A DNA stretch of 32,000 nt from Candidatus Saccharimonadota bacterium (GTDB taxonomy: Bacteria > Patescibacteriota > Gracilibacteria > UBA1369 > 2-02-FULL-48-14): assembly GCA_965230905.1 (NCBI GenBank), contig OZ246396.1, positions 330,001 through 362,000 of the forward strand, in the 5' to 3' direction. The position numbers and the translations under genes are program-made. The notes below the pieces were generated by a model that saw only the letters and a program-made list of their open reading frames with translations, ran no database searches and was not told the DNA's origin. The stretch's first letter is position 1. Every line of letters begins with the position of its first letter. This document shows, piece by piece, positions 1 to 31,615 of this stretch.

Positions 1-2397
1 GAGAAGCTGGATGAGTTGCAGCACACGATGGGGAAAAATTTTGGCGATGGCAGCAATCCCCTGCTGGTTTCTGTGCGATCGGGCGCAAGGGTATCGATGC
101 CGGGAATGATGGATACGATTTTGAACCTTGGGCTGAACGACCAAACGGTGGAAGGACTCATTGAAAAAACGCAGAATCCACGGTTTTCGTACGACTCGTA
201 TAGGCGCTTTGTGACTATGTTTGGAAACGTGGTTTTGAACATTCCGCATGACCACTTTGAAGAGGCACTTGAATCTGCAAAGAAGACAAAAGGCGTCACT
301 CTAGACACGGACATGACAGCGGAGGATTGGAAGGCGCTCGTGGCAGTGTTTAAGCAAATTGTTTTGGACGCGAGTGGCAAGCCCTTTCCTGAAAATCCTA
401 TCGACCAATTGAAGCTCGCGATTTTGGCTGTGTTTAGTTCTTGGAATAGCAAACGAGCGATTACGTATCGCAATTTGCACGGCATGGCGCACAACATGGG
501 AACGGCGGTGAATGTGCAATCGATGGTGTTTGGAAACATGGGAGAGGACAGCGGGACCGGAGTGGCGTTCACGCGAAATCCATCGACCGGAGAGAAGGAA
601 TTTTTTGGAGAATTTTTGTTCAATGCGCAGGGAGAAGATGTGGTGGCGGGAATCCGTACGCCCAAGAAAATTATTGAGATGCAGGAATCTATGCCCGCGA
701 TGTTTGACCAATTGAATGAGGTCCAAAAGACTTTGGAGAATCACTACCACGACATGCAGGACATCGAGTTCACGATTGAGTCGGGCCGTCTGTTTATGCT
801 GCAAACCCGCAATGGAAAACGAACCGCGCGGGCGGCCGTGAAGGTGGCGGTGGACATGGTGGAAGAAGGACTCATTACGAAAACTGAGGCGATTCGACGT
901 ATTGATGCGAATCAGCTCAATGCACTTTTGCATCCGTTCATTGACCCTAAGGCGCCCAAGATTGTTTTGGCAAAAGGCTTGCCTGCGTCGCCGGGTGCGG
1001 CTGTGGGAAAGATTGTTTTCTCTGCGGATGAAGCGTACCGAATGGCGGAAGAGGGTGAAAAAGTGATCTTGGTGAGAAAGGAAACGAGCCCCGAAGATAT
1101 TCACGGAATGCACTCGGCGCAGGGAATTTTGACTTCTACGGGAGGAATGACCAGCCACGCGGCGGTGGTTGCTCGCGGAATGGGAAAACCTTGTATTGCG
1201 GGTTGTAAAGAAGCGCACGTGGACGACAAAATCAAGACGCTGGAGATCAACGGACAGGTGTTTGGCGAAGGAGAAATTATTTCTTTGGACGGATCAACGG
1301 GCGAAGTGATGAAAGGCGAAATGCCAACGGTGGAAGCGGCGCTGACGGGAGAATTTGAAGAGCTGATGAGCTGGGCGGATGAGATTCGAACACTCAAAAT
1401 ACGCACGAATGCGGATACGCCGCACGATGCACAAGTGGCGCGCAGACTGGGCGCCGAAGGAATTGGGCTCTGCCGAACGGAGCACATGTTCTTTGATGAA
1501 GATCGCATTATGCTCGTGCGCCAGATGATTTTGTCTCAGAGTGTGGAGTCACGAAAGCGCGCGCTCGACAAATTGCTGCCGATGCAACGCGATGACTTTA
1601 AGGGGATTTTTAAGGCTATGGACGGCTTCCCTGTTACGATCCGTTTGCTCGACCCACCGCTGCACGAGTTCTTGCCAAATACTGAAGGGAAAATCAAGGC
1701 CGTGGCGCTAGAAATGGGTGTGGACTATGTGCAACTCCAAAAAATGGTGGACGCTTTGCATGAACTCAACCCTATGCTCGGTCACCGTGGAGTTCGTTTG
1801 GGTATCACCTACCCTGAGATTTATGAAATGCAGGCACGGGCGATTTTTGAAGCGGGCAAGGCGATGAGCGCCGAAGGCGTGAAAGTGATTGCCGAGATTG
1901 AAATTCCTCTGGTTGGACACGTGAATGAACTCAAAACCATGCGAACCTTGATTGAAAAAGTGGCGCAAGAAATGGGGCCGCTGAACTTTGAATGGAAAGT
2001 GGGGACCATGATTGAATTGCCACGCGCGTGTATCACGGCGCATCAGATTGCGGCGTTCGCAGACTTCTTCTCATTCGGAACGAATGACCTCACCCAGATG
2101 ACTTTTGGAGTGAGCCGAGATGATGCCGGGTCGTTCTTGCCGTTTTATACGGAGCACAGCATTTTGACCGACAACCCCACTGAAACGATTGACCAGGAGG
2201 GTGTGGGAGAACTTATGAAAATGGCCGTGCAACTGGGACGCAGCGTGAAGCCAGACCTGGAAATTGGGATTTGTGGGGAGCATGGTGGCGAGCCCAAGAG
2301 CGTTATTTTCTGTCACAAAATTGGCCTCAACTACGTGAGCTGCAGCCCTTACCGCGTTCCCGTAGCTCGCCTTGCGGCGGCGCAGGCGGCGTTGTAG
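1..2397 (+). CDS. ppdK: Pyruvate, phosphate dikinase (5' end truncated by window edge)
   Basis: Frame 1 is open from base 1 (EKLDELQHTMGKNFGD...), so the TTG at 16 is not the true start. PPDK hallmarks occur in order: phosphohistidine swivel motif GGMTSHAAVVARGMGKPC, then PEP/pyruvate-domain motifs GAEGIGLCRTEHMF, FFSFGTNDLTQ and ICGEHGG. Confidence 0.95.
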   Translation, partial: EKLDELQHTMGKNFGDGSNPLLVSVRSGARVSMPGMMDTILNLGLNDQTVEGLIEKTQNPRFSYDSYRRFVTMFGNVVLNIPHDHFEEALESAKKTKGVTLDTDMTAEDWKALVAVFKQIVLDASGKPFPENPIDQLKLAILAVFSSWNSKRAITYRNLHGMAHNMGTAVNVQSMVFGNMGEDSGTGVAFTRNPSTGEKEFFGEFLFNAQGEDVVAGIRTPKKIIEMQESMPAMFDQLNEVQKTLENHYHDMQDIEFTIESGRLFMLQTRNGKRTARAAVKVAVDMVEEGLITKTEAIRRIDANQLNALLHPFIDPKAPKIVLAKGLPASPGAAVGKIVFSADEAYRMAEEGEKVILVRKETSPEDIHGMHSAQGILTSTGGMTSHAAVVARGMGKPCIAGCKEAHVDDKIKTLEINGQVFGEGEIISLDGSTGEVMKGEMPTVEAALTGEFEELMSWADEIRTLKIRTNADTPHDAQVARRLGAEGIGLCRTEHMFFDEDRIMLVRQMILSQSVESRKRALDKLLPMQRDDFKGIFKAMDGFPVTIRLLDPPLHEFLPNTEGKIKAVALEMGVDYVQLQKMVDALHELNPMLGHRGVRLGITYPEIYEMQARAIFEAGKAMSAEGVKVIAEIEIPLVGHVNELKTMRTLIEKVAQEMGPLNFEWKVGTMIELPRACITAHQIAAFADFFSFGTNDLTQMTFGVSRDDAGSFLPFYTEHSILTDNPTETIDQEGVGELMKMAVQLGRSVKPDLEIGICGEHGGEPKSVIFCHKIGLNYVSCSPYRVPVARLAAAQAAL

Positions 2398-2428
2398 TAT
2401 GTGCTCTTAAATATTAACATCTTGACCT

Positions 2429-2737
2429 ATGGGACCAGATGAAGAACTGAAAAAATCGGAGACAGAGCTCAGCCCTTTTTCTCCTGAAGTTAGCCCTGAA
2501 TTATCTGGTGAAAGAGCATCTATTCGTACTGCAGTTCGTGCTCGGGCTTTTGTCTTTCCAGAGGGTGTAGATGAAACAAACTATCCTCAGGCTTATGTCT
2601 ATCCAGAGGGCGCGAATGAAAGCACGGCGATGCGACCACGGAAAGTTCGTGGTCGGGGTCGGGGTTTTGTCTTTCCAGAGGGCATGGATGAAAAGGACGC
2701 TTTGCGAATACGGCGTAAACTTTTTCCTGGCGCTTAA
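2429..2737 (+). CDS. Hypothetical small protein (102 aa) with three copies of an aromatic-V-aromatic-P-E-G-x-[DN]-E motif
   Basis: ATG-initiated ORF. The peptide repeats are FVFPEGVDE, YVYPEGANE and FVFPEGMDE. Repeat offsets are 45 and 72 nt, both multiples of 3, which keeps all copies in the same frame. Basic R/K-rich linkers separate them. No family recognised and no SD. Confidence 0.45.
   Translation: MGPDEELKKSETELSPFSPEVSPELSGERASIRTAVRARAFVFPEGVDETNYPQAYVYPEGANESTAMRPRKVRGRGRGFVFPEGMDEKDALRIRRKLFPGA
2548..2682 (+). repeat. Exact 18-bp direct repeat TTTTGTCTTTCCAGAGGG (2548-2565 and 2665-2682) plus a degenerate copy (2593-2610, TTATGTCTATCCAGAGGG)
   Basis: Read directly from the sequence. 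All copies lie inside ORF 2429-2737 and encode the FVFPEG/YVYPEG motif. Confidence 0.85.
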
Positions 2738-2761
2738 ATTATCCTATCTTAACTAGATCCC

Positions 2762-3052
2762 ATGGCTTTGGAAAGCTACGAACAGGTATTGGATGCGTTG
2801 GAAAAACAGGATATTGATGCGCTTGTCACCCTTAAGCCTGATGAGCTGAGAGCACTTGCGAAAGATAAGGGGACTTTAGAACGTCTAGGCGATGTGGATG
2901 CGGCTCGACGGCTTCTTGCAACTGCTGTTTTTTATTCTTATACAAATAGTCAGCTCGATAAAACGGGTGTGCCTCAAGTGGTTCGTGAAAATTTGAATTG
3001 GAAATTCGATTGGAGCACGGTGGCGTATGATGCGGCGGCTGGGAATATCTAA
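2762..3052 (+). CDS. Hypothetical protein (96 aa)
   Basis: ATG ORF 24 nt after the preceding stop, same strand as its neighbours. No motif recognised. Confidence 0.45.
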   Translation: MALESYEQVLDALEKQDIDALVTLKPDELRALAKDKGTLERLGDVDAARRLLATAVFYSYTNSQLDKTGVPQVVRENLNWKFDWSTVAYDAAAGNI

Positions 3053-3064
3053 ACTCGTTTTTCT

Positions 3065-3451
3065 ATGTCAGAGTTGCGTAATGAAACATCACAGGAGTCA
3101 GAGCCCCATATCCCACCTTTTTTAGAGAATCCAGATTTTTCAACAGCAGGAATTTTGATAACAGTGGGCGGAGCCATTTGGACCTGTTTCAATGCTGCTC
3201 GAGTAAACGTTTTAGACTCAAGACAAAATCCAAAGGTGAATCGGCTCTATCCTCCCACGACAAAAGCTACTGCTCATAGCTCTCGTAGAGCGGCCTTCTT
3301 AAACCAGGTTTTTGTTGGGATTGGACTTAGTGCGATAGGTATGGGAGTTCGTACGATTGAAGCCCTCCCTGAGGCTAAATCTGAAGTCACTGAAGCTATA
3401 CAGACTATTTATCTACGGTTAGCGTCTGAAGTTAATAGAGAGGCGCCTTGA
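3065..3451 (+). CDS. Hypothetical membrane protein (128 aa, two predicted TM helices)
   Basis: ATG ORF 12 nt after the preceding stop. Hydrophobic segments are AGILITVGGAIWTCFNAA and AAFLNQVFVGIGLSAIGMGV. Confidence 0.5.
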   Translation: MSELRNETSQESEPHIPPFLENPDFSTAGILITVGGAIWTCFNAARVNVLDSRQNPKVNRLYPPTTKATAHSSRRAAFLNQVFVGIGLSAIGMGVRTIEALPEAKSEVTEAIQTIYLRLASEVNREAP

Positions 3452-3588
3452 TTTTTTAAAAGGACCGAATACAATCCTAATGTTTCACCAAGGAGTCGTT
3501 GGACTTAAGATATTAACTTAAGGGTTGCGGCTCCATTTTTTGTAGCGATTTTTCTTGTTTCTAGTATGTTTTGTGTATAGTTGTAAGC

Positions 3589-4554
3589 ATGGACGCTGTT
3601 AAGAAAATCATCGATGTATCGGGATGGCATCAAAGTGCCATGTCTGTTGGAGGAGGGACTAGAGATAAATTGGTGTTTCGTCGAACAAAATTTGGGAAAG
3701 TTTACTACATGGTAAAGGGGCACCAAAAAGACGTTGGTGAGCTGAGAGCAGAAGTTTGCGCATCCAATCTTGGTAGAATTATAGGTTTTCCTGTACAACA
3801 GGCACGTTTTTGTATTATTCCGGATTACGAAGCCTTGGGTTTTTCTGATCAAAGAGGCGTACTGATTAGACTCGATATTACTCGACAGAAAGATCCTCGG
3901 CGTAATATTTTTAAGGAAGACTTACTTCATGGGATGGACATTATTGCCTTGTACGATCCTGCTTTCCAAGCATTGCCAGATGAAAGAACACGAAGATCAG
4001 AATATAAACTAAGCAAGGTAGTGTATTCGTTAAGGAATTTTATAAGGCAAAATCCTTCGGCTAAAACCCTTTGGTACTCTTTTTATGAGTTAATGGTATT
4101 TGATGCATTGATTGGAGGGACAGATCGACATTACAGAAATTGGGGAGTGCTTGTTGACTCAGAAACTCGAAAATATACCAGATTTGCTCCTGCTTTTGAC
4201 AATGGTATTAGTTTATTATGGAACACAGTTCATCATAAAACTTTTATAAATAGTGCAATTGATGGACACTTTGTTAAAAAAGCAAAGTCGGCTTTTAGAA
4301 AAGATGGCGGTGGGCAATATTCTCTTTTTGAACTTTGTGAGGAACTTGCCAAGTATCCAGAGATTACTTCAGAAATCATAGACGTGGTAAAAGAAAAAGT
4401 GTGTTTGATAACTGACTCAAAACTCAAAAAGGCACTTATCACTTATGTCCCTCATTCAAGTGAATTTGAAACTGAAAAGGAAATTTTGGCCTATTTGTTT
4501 GAGTATGTTAAAATGCGGTTACAAATTCTCAAGGAACTCCTAAATCGACTATAA
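3589..4554 (+). CDS. HipA-family Ser/Thr kinase lacking the HipA N-terminal subdomain (HipT-like putative toxin)
   Basis: The ORF track starts at TTG 3571; the first ATG is 3589 (MDAVKK...). Gly-rich loop SVGGGTRDK at residues 19-27 (compare HipA SVAGAQEK). Catalytic loop GGTDRHYRN at nt 4114-4140 (compare HipA GATDGHAKN). Downstream FAPAFDNG with D204 at nt 4198-4200 (compare HipA TPFYD). About 321 aa. Markedly AT-rich. Confidence 0.75.
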   Translation: MDAVKKIIDVSGWHQSAMSVGGGTRDKLVFRRTKFGKVYYMVKGHQKDVGELRAEVCASNLGRIIGFPVQQARFCIIPDYEALGFSDQRGVLIRLDITRQKDPRRNIFKEDLLHGMDIIALYDPAFQALPDERTRRSEYKLSKVVYSLRNFIRQNPSAKTLWYSFYELMVFDALIGGTDRHYRNWGVLVDSETRKYTRFAPAFDNGISLLWNTVHHKTFINSAIDGHFVKKAKSAFRKDGGGQYSLFELCEELAKYPEITSEIIDVVKEKVCLITDSKLKKALITYVPHSSEFETEKEILAYLFEYVKMRLQILKELLNRL

Positions 4555-4555
4555 A

Positions 4556-4861
4556 ATGAATACAGCTCCAAAGTATATGATTTTTTATAGCAAAGACGGC
4601 AACAAAGAGCCAGTTGCACGATTCTATCGTGACAACGATGGATCATTTGTTTTTCGCTACCTGTCTATTAACAAAGTTGAATTTCCAGGTTTCCCTTTAA
4701 GGTCTGGCGAATATCGAAGTGATTCTCTTTGGGAAGCAATTGCTTTTCGAGTCCCTACTATGCTGAGGAAGCAAAATCCTAAGACTGATTTGGACGAACT
4801 GATCGCAACAACTTCTGGTCGTCTTGTTACAGATCACTTTGAATTCAGTACACAGATTTAG
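4556..4861 (+). CDS. HipA N-terminal-domain-like small protein (HipS-like, 101 aa)
   Basis: ATG lies 1 nt after the kinase stop. The pattern VARFYRDNDGSFVFRY...FPLRSGEYRSDSL...FRVP...DLDELIATTSGRLVTDHFEF is collinear with the HipA N-terminal (Couple_hipA) pattern VGEL..NG.HTFKY...LPLQRGNITSD...NLLP...FDLLSEIGRDSVGAVTL. The HipA sequence is recalled from memory and was not aligned computationally. Confidence 0.5.
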   Translation: MNTAPKYMIFYSKDGNKEPVARFYRDNDGSFVFRYLSINKVEFPGFPLRSGEYRSDSLWEAIAFRVPTMLRKQNPKTDLDELIATTSGRLVTDHFEFSTQI

Positions 4862-5772
4862 CCCCTCTTCCCCCAACTAAGCTTTTCACGGAGGAGTTTG
4901 TAGTAGTTGCCGCCGCCGCTGGCTTTTACGTGGGCGCGGATGAGGCGGAGTTTGCGGTGGGAGGCGCGGATTTTGATGACGTCGCCGTATTCCACGGGGA
5001 TCATGACTTGGCCATCGATGGTGAGACCGATTTGGTTGTCGGCGTAACGGCGGTCGGTGTCGATGCGGATCGTTATTTGGCGGTTGCTGGGGACGATGAT
5101 GGGGCGCACGGTGAGGTCGGCGGGACAGATTGGGGTGAAGACGAAGCCGTCGATGCGGGGATGGATGATGGGGCCGCCGGCGCTGAGGGAGTGACCGGTG
5201 GAACCGGTGGGCGTGGCGACGATGACGCCGTCCGCTTTGAACTCAATCATCTTTCTTTGGTCGATTTCAGCGTAGAGAGAGATGAGACGAGCAAAGTTAC
5301 CCTGATTGATCACGGCCTCGTTTAAAGCCAAATGCGTGTCGATTTTTTGCCCTTTGCGGTAGAGGGTGGCGCGCAAGAGAAGGCGTTCGTCGATATGGTA
5401 GGAGCCGGCGAAGAATTCGTCGAGGATTTCGTAGACCTTGTTGGGATCTTGAACTTCGGTGTTGAAGCCGAGGGTGCCGAGGTTAACGCCGAGCACGTAG
5501 AGATTGCGGCGCAGTGGGAGATCGCGGACGATTTTGAGCAAGGTGCCGTCGCCACCGAGGCTGAGGACCAGATCGGCGTCTTTGAGCATTTGTGGACGGG
5601 TGGCTTCGTTTTTGTTGCCGAGGACTTTGCTGACGTGCTCGTCCCAGCTTAGGGAGATTTTTTGGGTGTCGAAATATTTTTTGAGTTGCTTCAAAAATTT
5701 GGCGTCTTCTTCCATCTTGGAGCGGCCGATGAGGGCTATCCTCTGGAATTTATTGGTGGTTTTTGCTTTCAT
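4858..5772 (-). CDS. nadK: NAD(+) kinase
   Basis: Motifs GGDGTLL, NEAVI and DGVIVATPTGSTGHSLSAGGPI. The track ORF begins at GTG 5820, but ATG 5772 (MKAKTTNKFQRIALIG...) gives a typical N-terminus and avoids overlap with the divergent gene. Confidence 0.9.
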   Translation of the reverse strand: MKAKTTNKFQRIALIGRSKMEEDAKFLKQLKKYFDTQKISLSWDEHVSKVLGNKNEATRPQMLKDADLVLSLGGDGTLLKIVRDLPLRRNLYVLGVNLGTLGFNTEVQDPNKVYEILDEFFAGSYHIDERLLLRATLYRKGQKIDTHLALNEAVINQGNFARLISLYAEIDQRKMIEFKADGVIVATPTGSTGHSLSAGGPIIHPRIDGFVFTPICPADLTVRPIIVPSNRQITIRIDTDRRYADNQIGLTIDGQVMIPVEYGDVIKIRASHRKLRLIRAHVKASGGGNYYKLLREKLSWGKRG

Positions 5773-17159: not shown

Positions 17160-17268
17160 TAGAATTGTTAAAATTCCTCGGCGAAGCCTTATGTTAGCGC
17201 TTCTTTTTAGCAAAGTCCTGACAAAAACCTGAAATTTTTGGGGGAAATTTTGCGAGTGTTTGTTGGTG

Positions 17269-17296
17269 TTGACAAGTCCTTTCGGCATGTTAATCT
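17269..17296 (+). promoter_or_regulatory. Candidate promoter TTGACA-N16-(TGt)TAATCT for ORF 17328
   Basis: Consensus -35 at 17269-17274 and a TG-extended weak -10 at 17288-17296, 31 nt upstream of ATG 17328. Confidence 0.35.
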
Positions 17297-17327
17297 TTCC
17301 CCGATTTCCATTTTTAACCTTCGTTTT

Positions 17328-17810
17328 ATGGCTTTAGATAAAGGTTCAGTCGTTCCAGAAGATCACCGAATGCCTAGGAGAAATGTAAAATTTCCTGCAA
17401 GTGATGCTTTGACAGTGACTCGGCAAGATGTGTTGGACTCGGCTACATTTCTAGCTTTGGATCCAAAGACGGCTAATGAAGCTAAACCGGCGTTGATTTC
17501 AGTGGAGGGTGGCGAAGCTCAAAAGGGTTTCCAACTTCCAGATGGTAGAGTCGCTGTTGTGGCAGGTTTCGATAAAACGGCCTTTCTCTCCAATGGAACT
17601 ATAGATGCAAGTCGAGCCACTTTCCCTATGTCCTCTCCTAATGGAAAGCATGTGTATATGGACGTGGATCAAGCTACTCAGGCAGCGAGGCACGGAGGTT
17701 TTAGGTCAGCTTTGATATCAGCTGAGGGCAATGCCGGCTACAATAAGGTTGTTACGCCTGATGTGCATCCGACTCTTGATCCATATTTCGAAAGATCTCG
17801 AGCCAACTAA
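17328..17810 (+). CDS. Hypothetical protein (160 aa)
   Basis: Start taken at ATG 17328 (MALDKGS...), because the track start 17238 would include the candidate promoter. No family recognised; lower GC than the flanks. Confidence 0.5.
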   Translation: MALDKGSVVPEDHRMPRRNVKFPASDALTVTRQDVLDSATFLALDPKTANEAKPALISVEGGEAQKGFQLPDGRVAVVAGFDKTAFLSNGTIDASRATFPMSSPNGKHVYMDVDQATQAARHGGFRSALISAEGNAGYNKVVTPDVHPTLDPYFERSRAN

Positions 17811-21901: not shown

Positions 21902-21966
21902 GACTTAGAAATTTACTTTTGAAAAACGTGTATTTGCCGTATATTACCGTCATTCATTTAAATTTT

Positions 21967-22677
21967 ATGGAAGCCTACGATTCAGATTTAATGGATTTGC
22001 ATAGGACTTGGACCTCACAAACTCCTGACTGTCTTGAAAAAGATCCTGCTTTGATGAGAAGGGCACTTTCAAGCAGTTCCCCTGTTGGCCTGATCCAGCA
22101 GATTTTGTATCGAGCTACGGGAGAAACCCTAAAGGGTGCTTTAAAGGACGTGAGTGAAACAGGAACTTTTTTTGAGAAAGGTCGTGTCGTAGCAGCTAGT
22201 GGACAGCATAATTTGGCACACCTTTTGTTTTCTAAAGCAGCGGAAGAGTCTGTAGACTTTAAGGAGCAAGTTCGTATTATACGGTGCCTGCTTCCAGGCT
22301 CTTCTAAAGAAGAAGCTAAAGCCCTGTTTGAAGTTGTTAAAAGGGAAGGAATCGTTGAGATTTATCATGCTTACGCTCAGTATCTTTTTTCTCACAAAAT
22401 GGAGATAGAGGCGGAAGCGGTATTAGAAGAAGGGATGGAAGCGGGAGACCTACAGTCTTATATGCTCACCTTATTTTGGCTTAAAGAGAAGGAATCTAAA
22501 TTGAGAGGGCTGGAGAAGATTAAAAATGTAATAGCTTTTTCAAAAGTTTTGATGAGGGGTACCTTGGCAGGCTTGAACGTTGCAAGGGATTCAAGAGCTC
22601 TGGCTTCAATGCTTATTCCTTCTGGGAAAGAGGGAGCTCCCCTCAATATGCCACAGGCGCTTGGCGTTTCGGCTTAA
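21967..22677 (+). CDS. Hypothetical helical protein (236 aa)
   Basis: First ATG is 21967 (MEAYDSDL...); the track start 21919 is TTG. Predicted alpha-helical and repeat-like. No family recognised; lower GC. Confidence 0.5.
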   Translation: MEAYDSDLMDLHRTWTSQTPDCLEKDPALMRRALSSSSPVGLIQQILYRATGETLKGALKDVSETGTFFEKGRVVAASGQHNLAHLLFSKAAEESVDFKEQVRIIRCLLPGSSKEEAKALFEVVKREGIVEIYHAYAQYLFSHKMEIEAEAVLEEGMEAGDLQSYMLTLFWLKEKESKLRGLEKIKNVIAFSKVLMRGTLAGLNVARDSRALASMLIPSGKEGAPLNMPQALGVSA

Positions 22678-29487: not shown

Positions 29488-29917
29488 ACACAAAGCCACT
29501 TCTGTAGTGGACTCTCGAGAAGCCAACGAAGGCCGGTCTATTCGCCGCCGTCGTGAATGTGAGGAGTGCAACTACCGTTTCACCACCTTTGAAAAAGTGG
29601 AAACCGCCAATTTCATTGTGGTAAAAAAAGACGGCTCGCGGGAAAGTTACGACCGCAGCAAAGTGGAACATGGAATTTGGCGCGCGTGTGAGAAGCGCCC
29701 CGTGACGCAGGAACAAATCAGCGCCATGATCGACCGCCTGGAGGAAGTGTGGAGCACCAGCGGCAAGGAAATTCCCGGCGACACCATTGGCCGCGATGTG
29801 ATGCACGCGCTAAAAGTCATCGACGAGGTTTCGTATATTCGATTCGCCAGCGTGTACCGACAGTTTAAGGACGTGGAGGAGTTCAAACAGGAGCTGAACC
29901 GGCTTTTAGGGCGCTAG
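29468..29917 (+). CDS. nrdR: Transcriptional repressor NrdR
   Basis: The canonical N-terminus MICPKCKHKATSVVDSR begins at ATG 29468 (the track ATG 29450 adds 6 residues). Zn ribbon CPKC...CEEC followed by an ATP-cone. Confidence 0.9.
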   Translation: MICPKCKHKATSVVDSREANEGRSIRRRRECEECNYRFTTFEKVETANFIVVKKDGSRESYDRSKVEHGIWRACEKRPVTQEQISAMIDRLEEVWSTSGKEIPGDTIGRDVMHALKVIDEVSYIRFASVYRQFKDVEEFKQELNRLLGR

Positions 29918-30752
29918 TACGGATTTTTAGGAGGGCCCTATCTCTGATTTGACGTGTCCTCTCTTTACTCAAACTGAGCTCTTTTCCTATTTCTAATAGA
30001 GAATGAGTTTTTGGATAGTCAATTCCATAATACATTTTTAGTATTTGCACTTCTCTTTTATCTAGACCGGAGCTGCGAGTTAAATACCTTTGATGAATCA
30101 GCTCATTAGGATCCTCTTCCTCTTCAATCAGTCTTGCGAGGGCGTCCCCTGCTTCAGTATCTTGCACCTGTCCCTCCAGCTGCTTGCCCGAGTCGTGATC
30201 AAGCTGTGGACTCAACGATGCCAGCGGCGCATTGAGCATGTGGAGGCCTTCTATTTTTTCAATTGAGGTCTCAAGGAAACTTGCTATTTCTGTACTGCTC
30301 AATTCTTGACCCGAACTTTTCGAAGCTTCAGCATTCAGGTTACGTACTTTTCTAAGCAAACTTCTATCCCGACCAGACGTCTTGAGTAGGCGTATATTTT
30401 TAGCGATGTAGTCCAGGATCATCTGGTCGATCCACCATTTGGCGTAGCTTGAAAATTTAATCCCACGGGTGGGGTCAAACTTTTCTGCCGCCTTTATCAA
30501 TCCGAGCACCCCTTCTTGAATGAGGTCTTCCTTGAACTCTAAAGTATAGTGGTAGCTGTTTACACGTTTATAAACCATACGCAGATGATCTTTGACCAAG
30601 GCCTGTTGATTCAATTCACTAGCTGCTTTCATTTTTCCTTTCACTTCTTTCCTAAAGTCGTCGACCTCAGTGCTGATTCTTTCGGGAGACTTTAAAGACA
30701 GCGCTGGCTTCGCATTAAGCAAATCTGGAGGTTTATTTGTCGTTTCGGTCAT
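29883..30752 (-). CDS. Sigma-70 family sigma factor, divergent (possibly RpoH-like)
   Basis: Region 2 is [33 protein letters not shown]. Region 4.2 HTH is [26 protein letters not shown]. It lacks the RTIRIP-type motif and has [18 protein letters not shown] where RpoH carries its RpoH box (weak similarity). Confidence 0.8.
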
Positions 30753-31615
30753 GAATTATTTAATGGATTGAGTTTATTGCGCTTCTGGATTCTTTTAATT
30801 GCTTTGAGCTCTATTTGACGAATCCTTTCGCGCGTGAGGCCAATTTCTTTACCTATTGCTTCCAAACCCATCCCATCGGTTCCTTCGAGTCCGTACCTCA
30901 ATTCAATTACTCTTCTTTCTCTAGGATTGAGTAGATGAAGGTATCCATTAATTTGTGCAAGTTCATCCGCTTTAAGTAGAGGTGCTTCCGTATCTGCACT
31001 GGTATCTGGAATAAATTCTCCAACGGTGGCTGCATTGTCTTCACTCGCTGGTGCGTCCAAAGAGCTAGGATCTTTGGCAACGTTGAGAAGCTTCTGTAGT
31101 TCATATGGATCTATATCCATTATTGCTGCTATTTCATCAATGGTCGGTTCTCGCCCATGTTGCTGGGAAAATTCCTTTGAGAATTTTCGGAAATGATTCA
31201 AATCCTCTAGTTTATAGATTGGAATATGTATGGTGCGCCCATTGCTTTCTACGGCTCTGATGATCGCTTGTTGAATCCACCAAGTGGCATAAGTTGAAAA
31301 CTTGAATCCTCGCGAGTGGTCAAACTTATCAACGCCCTTCATAAGACCGATGTTTCCCTCCTGGATCAGGTCTTCTAAGCGAACGCCTCGGTAGAGGTAC
31401 TTTTTGGCTATGCTCACCACTAAGCGGAGGTTTGCCTTGACCATATAATCACGGGCCAGGATTGCATCGGGGCCTCCATCATCTATACGTTTAGCCACTT
31501 CATATTCATCGGCACGGCTCAATAAAGGAGTCTTCTCTATCTCTTTGAAATATTTGCTGAGGAGAAGAGGCTCGTTAGCCCGCTCTTCCGGATGACAGTT
31601 AGTGCTTTTTTCCAC
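30749..31615 (-). CDS. Sigma-70 family sigma factor, RpoD/group 1-2-like, lacking region 1.1
   Basis: GTG start at 31615; there is no in-frame ATG before region 2. Region 1.2 is [12 protein letters not shown]. Region 2 is [13 protein letters not shown]...[45 protein letters not shown] is present. Region 4.2 is [26 protein letters not shown]. Confidence 0.85.

Follow-up and report, generated by a model that had tools for sequence, protein, structure and literature searches.

The stretch of DNA analysed here (hereafter the window) comprises 32,000 nucleotides of a 1.3-Mb contig from the Hainich groundwater metagenome, and belongs to a bacterium of the Patescibacteria, in line with the small-genome host supposed in the preliminary description of this DNA. 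Our subject is a pair of open reading frames (ORFs) on its forward strand, one of 321 aa at 3589-4554 and another of 101 aa at 4556-4861, which that description had read as a split HipA-type module, with a core kinase followed by a HipS-like protein. The ORF listing gave the same two frames and the same spacing: a single nucleotide separates the stop of the kinase gene from the start of the 101-aa ORF, the junction at 4552-4558 (+) reading TAA-A-ATG, which indicates translational coupling of the two genes. An alternative TTG start at 3571 is possible for the kinase; homologues nonetheless align from the ATG at 3589.

The product of 3589-4554 is predicted to be a short Ser/Thr kinase of the HipA superfamily, with a HipJ/HipI-like core lacking N-subdomain-1. 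It matched the Pfam profile HipA_C (PF07804) over residues 22-222, scoring 44.5 bits where the gathering cut-off is 30.5 (E 1.9e-11), which agrees with the HipA_C identity first assigned from motifs. The motifs SVGGGTRDK, GGTD179RHYRN184 and FD204NG had been read correctly, translation placing them at S19-VGGGTRDK27 (residues 20-27 forming the Gly-rich loop), G176-GTD179RHYRN184 and F203-D204-NG. Across 21 aligned homologues D179, N184 and D204 are invariant and the Gly-rich loop is invariant or nearly so, T24 within it being nearly invariant.

Matches in other collections place the kinase close to a known candidate defence family. The PADLOC profile PDC-M03A was matched over positions 2-275 of 280 (E 4.2e-34), and nine PDC-M03A models match the kinase; NCBIfam holds no model for it. 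The closest solved sequence is Helicobacter pylori CtkA (E 7e-6), Escherichia coli HipA scoring 0.19. An AlphaFold2 (AF2) model of the kinase reached a predicted local distance difference test (pLDDT) score of 80, and in a Foldseek search against the PDB CtkA was again the best match (E 5e-11, TM-score up to 0.71/0.78), ahead of HipA and the HipT of Legionella pneumophila, all with probability 1.00. Among PHROGs the kinase matches one family only, of unknown function, and a scan of viral contigs returned no true relatives, with one partial match at 34% identity. In the NCBI annotation the kinase is a "HipA domain-containing protein" (MEK9159879.1) and the small protein a "hypothetical protein".

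The 101-aa protein encoded by 4556-4861 is, judging from its modelled fold and from profile searches, a HipS-like protein with the fold of HipA N-subdomain-1 and without a HIRAN domain. Direct searches against Pfam and NCBIfam gave no Couple_hipA or HipA_N match at E<=1, and PDB sequence searches with the single protein or with a narrow family profile returned nothing relevant; the HipA N-terminal (Couple_hipA) pattern ascribed to it in the preliminary description thus fails as a direct match and holds by fold and by a transitive profile link through a HipN-type protein (P0252). Its AF2 model, built on 62 homologues, has a pLDDT of 86.7 and displays four strands, three short helices and a C-terminal strand, a topology also described for E. 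coli HipS (PMC10627512). The top Foldseek matches in the PDB were two structures of Legionella HipS (8ezr_A and 7vkb_B; E 8e-4, probability 1.00, TM-score 0.70-0.72), after which came a series of HipA structures, aligned through the N-terminal domain. For the HIRAN domain there was no Pfam match, and the chain ends at residue 101. Residue conservation is modestly higher in the helical/C-terminal half (0.77-0.90 vs 0.68), a difference not used as interface evidence.

The transitive link was obtained as follows. PADLOC PDC-M03B matches the window protein weakly (E 1.3e-4, profile positions 17-113 of 245), and it matches 60 of the 62 members of the small-protein family, with a best E of 1.7e-8. 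When the family profile was searched exhaustively against 1.84 billion representatives it reached, beyond its own family, proteins of ~225-255 aa over their first ~115 residues (E down to 2e-9); these relatives bear a C-terminal HIRAN domain and are thus of HipN type, and one of them directly follows a 294-aa HipA_C kinase. For P0252 the family profile gave E 3.5e-5, and the same region of this protein passes Pfam Couple_hipA (PF13657) with 31.8 bits against a cut-off of 22.5. Within the broad alignment A4, three of 30 members match Couple_hipA at E<=0.1, the window protein not being among them. The HipS nature of the 101-aa protein follows from this evidence together with the fold, and the profile search points to a HipN-like branch for it.

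Three further observations were made with these profiles. A protein of 2026 aa (P0238) contains 12 separate stretches matching residues 4-37 of the small-protein profile (E 3.6e-17), which look like repeats of a similar beta-hairpin unit. The broadened profile also met PDB entries 4noo_A and 4nso_A ("VgrG protein" and "Effector protein") at E 0.07-0.13 through a segment resembling LW..IA.R.P..R, probably by chance. Finally, E. coli HipS needs Trp65 for neutralisation, this residue inserting into the active-site cavity of the kinase (PMC10627512); the family-invariant W59 was considered as its equivalent and rejected, as it aligns with HipS H54.

To follow the gene order, 41 related kinase loci were fetched, 33 of them with enough downstream sequence and three more truncated but showing the beginning of the small ORF. 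The small ORF lies directly downstream of the kinase in 36 of the 36 assessable loci (33 plus the three truncated ones), so that the survey of homologous loci proposed in the preliminary description returned kinase then small ORF throughout. Among 26 non-redundant pairs the two genes share a 4-nt ATGA overlap in 14 and lie within a few nucleotides of each other in the others; in the same set the pairwise identities of the two proteins correlate strongly (Mantel r 0.90, a value reached in 0 of 2000 permutations). The two genes are invariably inherited as a pair. Co-inheritance and coupling are compatible with a toxin-antitoxin (TA) system of type II, although they do not prove it.

More than 100 kinase homologues were found at about 45% identity, the named sources all being Patescibacteria/Candidate Phyla Radiation (CPR) lineages, and no fused kinase-HipS-like form was seen among the homologues of the kinase family. 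The window pair is the most divergent member, with about 47% identity to the others vs about 61% among the others; both of its ORFs are intact and both proteins keep every family-invariant residue, and identical or 98%-identical copies of the pair recur in several independent assemblies. At one more distant locus (L051:1119-2427) a 334-aa kinase, 33% identical to that of the window and below the HipA_C cut-off, precedes a 100-aa HipS-like protein (P0242) with 1 nt between the two genes; this divergent pair has the same layout, so the arrangement extends beyond the core family.

A classification of HipA homologues into families by operon structure was published by Gerdes, Baerentsen and Brodersen in 2021 (PMC8262856). 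Their clade XI contains core kinases of 279-321 aa with a Gly-rich loop near the N-terminus, followed by a putative antitoxin gene; in hipIN the kinase precedes HipN (a HipS-like domain plus HIRAN) and in hipJS it precedes a single-domain HipS, HipJ modules being explicitly noted to have no DNA-binding partner (PMC8262856). HipL, in the same work, fuses kinase, HipS-like domain and HIRAN in that order, and hipJS accounted for two of the 1,239 modules surveyed, with no Patescibacteria sampled (PMC8262856). PADLOC lists hipIN as PDC-M03, a candidate defence system consisting of a HipA and HIRAN pair. Our literature search found no experiments on hipIN or hipJS, nor any Hip modules in Patescibacteria.

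Compared with these descriptions, the cassette has the architecture of hipJS and by sequence looks like a HIRAN-less relative of hipIN. With hipJS it shares the short core kinase with an N-terminal Gly-rich loop, the downstream single-domain HipS-like protein of ~100 aa and the lack of a DNA-binding partner, and the 321 aa of its kinase fall within the published range; the difference is that the published HipS groups with the HipS of hipBST and with HipA-N, whereas the window protein is detectably closest to the N-domains of HipN. The likeness to hipJS is one of architecture set against the published description, and the branch of the small protein was judged by profile search. With hipIN/PDC-M03 it shares a kinase that matches PDC-M03A at full length, a partner corresponding to the N-terminal half of PDC-M03B, and the same gene order and overlap; however, the window partner stops after the HipS-like domain, without the HIRAN DNA-end-binding domain, and lacks two insertions found in HipN N-domains.

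Like hipBST of E. coli O127:H6 and Legionella pneumophila, the cassette is a split HipA with a core kinase and a separate ~100-aa protein of HipS fold, but the order there is hipB-hipS-hipT, whereas here the kinase precedes the HipS-like gene and no HipB is present; moreover, HipT's Gly-rich loop (58-63) follows an N-terminal mini-domain (PMC10627512) which the window kinase lacks. HipL shows the same order of modules, kinase then HipS-like, although here they form two proteins and HIRAN is absent. CtkA (JHP0940) resembles the window kinase in that it is short, HipA-like and devoid of the N-terminal subdomain, but it is described as a secreted pro-inflammatory kinase and its identity to the window kinase is about 18-20%. 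Canonical hipBA of E. coli K-12 shares the kinase superfamily and the catalytic motifs, the predicted fold of the small protein being that of HipA N-subdomain-1; in that system one 440-aa chain, HipA, carries the lid at the N-terminus and is neutralised by a helix-turn-helix (HTH) protein, HipB, encoded upstream, whereas in the cassette the lid has a gene of its own, downstream of the kinase.

In view of these comparisons, the split HipA-type module recognised in the preliminary description stands, as a core kinase without N-subdomain-1 plus a separate protein of HipS fold (by HipA_C match, fold and family profile), but its novelty has to be restated. The gene order is non-canonical relative to hipBST, although it is the order already known for hipJS (PMC8262856); and the variant had been predicted before. 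The architecture is not new because hipJS was described in silico in 2021 and its sibling hipIN is in PADLOC as PDC-M03. What is new is a large, previously unreported Patescibacteria clade of this predicted kind of Hip module.

The pair sits at the end of a low-GC3 island (GC3 being the GC content at third codon positions) that spans 2398-4861 and holds five co-oriented ORFs. Upstream lies the gene for pyruvate phosphate dikinase (PPDK, 16-2397), and at the other end a convergent NAD kinase gene, whose stop (TAA, 4858-4860, -) overlaps that of the small ORF (TAG, 4859-4861, +); the overlapping stops leave no intergenic space or terminator between the island and this core gene. The kinase gene has a GC content of 0.376 and the small ORF one of 0.395, compared with 0.505 for the whole window, and a 500-nt GC profile dips to 0.34-0.41 across 3500-4500, with flanks of about 0.5-0.57. 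In GC3 the kinase gene stands at 0.30, the small ORF at 0.32 and the three ORFs upstream of them at 0.32-0.40, vs 0.59 for PPDK and 0.73 for the NAD kinase gene. The pair is therefore AT-rich, as had been remarked before, but since the upstream ORFs are as low in GC3 the compositionally foreign stretch, at about 2398-4861, is wider than the pair.

The three upstream ORFs, all small and on the same strand between PPDK and the kinase, appear for the same reason to belong to this foreign island. The first (2429-2737, +; 102 aa, GC3 0.32) encodes a threefold repeat of (F/Y)V(F/Y)PEG(V/A/M)(D/N)E and is the sole member of its protein cluster; the second (2762-3052, +) and third (3065-3451, +) encode proteins of 96 and 128 aa, the latter called a two-transmembrane (2-TM) protein in the preliminary description. 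The protein clusters of these orphans have 1-3 members, all from the lineage of this organism. No family match, HTH included, was obtained for any of them at E<=1 in Pfam, NCBIfam or PADLOC, and PHROGs was also empty; the lack of a HipB gene in the cassette is thus in agreement with what had been proposed. None of the three was found beside any of the 41 related kinase loci.

A promoter-like site at 3448-3475 (+), TTGATT-16-TACAAT with 9 of 12 consensus matches, lies in the 137-nt AT-rich spacer before the kinase; as a kinase promoter it is a weak prediction made by consensus scan only, the region holding 9 such sites in total vs 5.3 +/- 2.3 expected. Scans of 2300-5100 gave no convincing operator, terminal repeats or terminator, and no tRNA or Rfam RNA that could mark an integration site was found in the window. 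Elsewhere in the window, two ORFs without a Pfam match, 17238-17810 (+, 190 aa) and 21919-22677 (+, 252 aa), coincide with two other GC dips (0.42-0.43) and sit among housekeeping genes, namely RecA and AIRS-/GATase-domain genes which may be purL/purQ. In addition, two sigma-70-family genes (289 and 288 aa) stand in tandem at 29883-31615 (-), with a 4-nt overlap and lower GC (0.41-0.45).

The neighbours of the pair differ at every related locus, including LepA, ComM-like, PfkB, TspO and NUDIX genes and others. With the low-GC3 island and these changing neighbours, the module behaves as an accessory or horizontally acquired element. A co-oriented HTH ORF just upstream of the kinase occurs in two of the ~24 loci with readable upstream DNA, so that related loci do not regularly carry one, as the preliminary description would require. 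In the first of them (L002:177-386) a 69-aa XRE-type HTH ORF ends 3 nt before the kinase, forming an HTH-kinase-HipS-like tricistron on one Saccharibacteria-labelled contig; in the second (L016:764-1267) a 167-aa HTH_40 protein is encoded 70 nt upstream of the kinase.

Restriction-modification (RM) genes are also found next to the pair. In three distinct loci a type IIG Eco57I/MmeI-like RM gene shares 4 nt with the kinase start (L004:1155-3998; L009:1359-3998, equal to L027; L010:32-2998), encoding proteins of 880-990 aa with Eco57I/MmeI methylase, TaqI_C specificity and HSDR_N domains; this overlap suggests co-transcription of the RM enzyme with the Hip module. At a further locus (L001) a ResIII helicase adjoins the pair.

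Taking these observations together, we consider it probable, by a modest measure, that the cassette is a self-contained, horizontally acquired two-gene module of hipJS type in which the kinase acts as a toxin that arrests growth and is kept inactive by its HipS-like partner; on this reading, drawn by analogy, the kinase is the presumed toxin and the small protein the presumed antitoxin or regulator. In both split systems studied HipS is described as neutralising HipT (PMC10627512 and PMC9325769). By analogy with the HipS-HipT pairs of E. coli O127 and Legionella, the HipS-like protein would bind the kinase at the position of HipA N-subdomain-1 and keep the Gly-rich loop and active site inactive; loss or displacement of the partner, for instance on phage infection or loss of the cassette, would release the kinase, which could then phosphorylate an essential component of translation. 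The targets of characterised Hip kinases are aminoacyl-tRNA synthetases. The outcome would be growth arrest, giving either abortive infection or addiction. Having neither an HTH nor a HIRAN partner, the module has no obvious DNA-binding autoregulator, and the stoichiometry of the two proteins would probably be set by translational coupling.

Several observations weigh against such a TA function. By direct sequence comparison the small protein is tied only weakly to HipS or HipA-N: the broadened profile placed E. coli and Haemophilus influenzae HipS among its top five PDB matches at a non-significant E of 0.25, and hhalign against an alignment of HipA N-subdomains (from Table S1) gave a probability of 49% over 21 columns with alignment A4 and of 4% with alignment A3. 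The position of HipS Trp65 is occupied by I, L or M in the family, in an alignment that is co-linear and non-significant (E 0.25). The module has no DNA-binding component for autoregulation; the fusion of the HipS-like domain to the kinase in cis in HipL argues that this domain can be a regulator and not a degradable antitoxin; and the closest solved kinase, CtkA, is a secreted effector, not a TA toxin. Furthermore, hipJS and hipIN have been put forward as TA/defence modules as predictions only (PMC8262856). Given the absence of Trp65, the cis-fused HipL and the similarity to CtkA, alternatives remain in which the small protein is an obligate subunit or the two proteins form an effector/immunity pair.

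In the former alternative the HipS-like protein would be an obligatory structural or specificity subunit completing a circularly permuted, split HipA holoenzyme, and not an inhibitor, and the kinase would be controlled by other means, such as autophosphorylation of its Gly-rich loop. The strict co-occurrence, coupling and co-divergence of the two genes fit an obligate heterodimer as well as a TA pair; the subdomain is a permanent lid in HipA and comes fused after the kinase in HipL, and both the lack of a conserved Trp65, within the limits of that alignment, and the near invariance of T24 would agree with this view. Nevertheless, HipS is the neutralising partner in the two split systems that have been studied, and a patchy distribution, foreign composition and RM neighbours typify accessory TA/defence cassettes and not a housekeeping kinase, so we regard an obligatory subunit as unlikely. 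Patescibacteria are generally held to be episymbionts, and it has also to be asked if the kinase could be exported to act on the host cell of the episymbiont, as CtkA and the Legionella effector Lpg2370/HipT do on theirs, the small protein serving as immunity factor or chaperone of the producer. Such a role would be in keeping with CtkA as the closest solved structure and with the Legionella HipT (Lpg2370), first described as an effector (PMC9325769); however, no secretion-system, signal-peptide or other conserved neighbour gene was found at any locus, the T2SSE ATPase of the window is encoded some 8 kb from the pair, with housekeeping genes around it, and the family profile matches a PADLOC candidate defence system, all of which makes export very improbable in our opinion.

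The extent and the integrity of the module can be questioned as well. The three orphans and the pair might form a five-gene unit in which one of the upstream ORFs (2429-3451) replaces HipB, as the shared strand, tight spacing and low GC3 would allow; but these ORFs stand beside none of the 41 related loci, match no family, HTH or other, at E<=1, and fall in clusters of 1-3 sequences restricted to this lineage, and we hold little expectation of such a unit. Foreign composition and the position of the pair as the most divergent member (about 47% vs about 61% identity) could likewise be those of an inactive relic of horizontal transfer in decay; that both ORFs are intact, that every family-invariant residue is kept in both proteins and that identical or 98%-identical copies are present in several independent assemblies leaves this explanation with scarcely any credit.

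Within the TA reading, a bolder version can be put forward, which we offer as speculative and doubtful: a minimal kinase-based abortive-infection system that has shed both HipB and HIRAN, where the ~100-aa protein would both inhibit the kinase and sense a phage cue directly. If true, it would be the simplest Hip-type immune switch and would join the small number of defence systems confined to episymbiotic bacteria of ultra-small size, sometimes in an operon with a type IIG RM enzyme.

Current understanding of Hip kinases is not overturned by these results. hipJS was defined from two examples, and the family described here adds well above 100 distinct kinase/HipS-like pairs, which co-evolve and come from another region of the bacterial tree; a two-protein Hip module without HipB and HIRAN is therefore a stable and widespread design and not an oddity of annotation. 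The small protein, now a "hypothetical protein", can be annotated properly, and the pair offers a clean system for studying how a HipS-type protein may control a Hip kinase without a DNA-binding partner, which substrates the kinase has, and whether such kinases take part in defence against phages.

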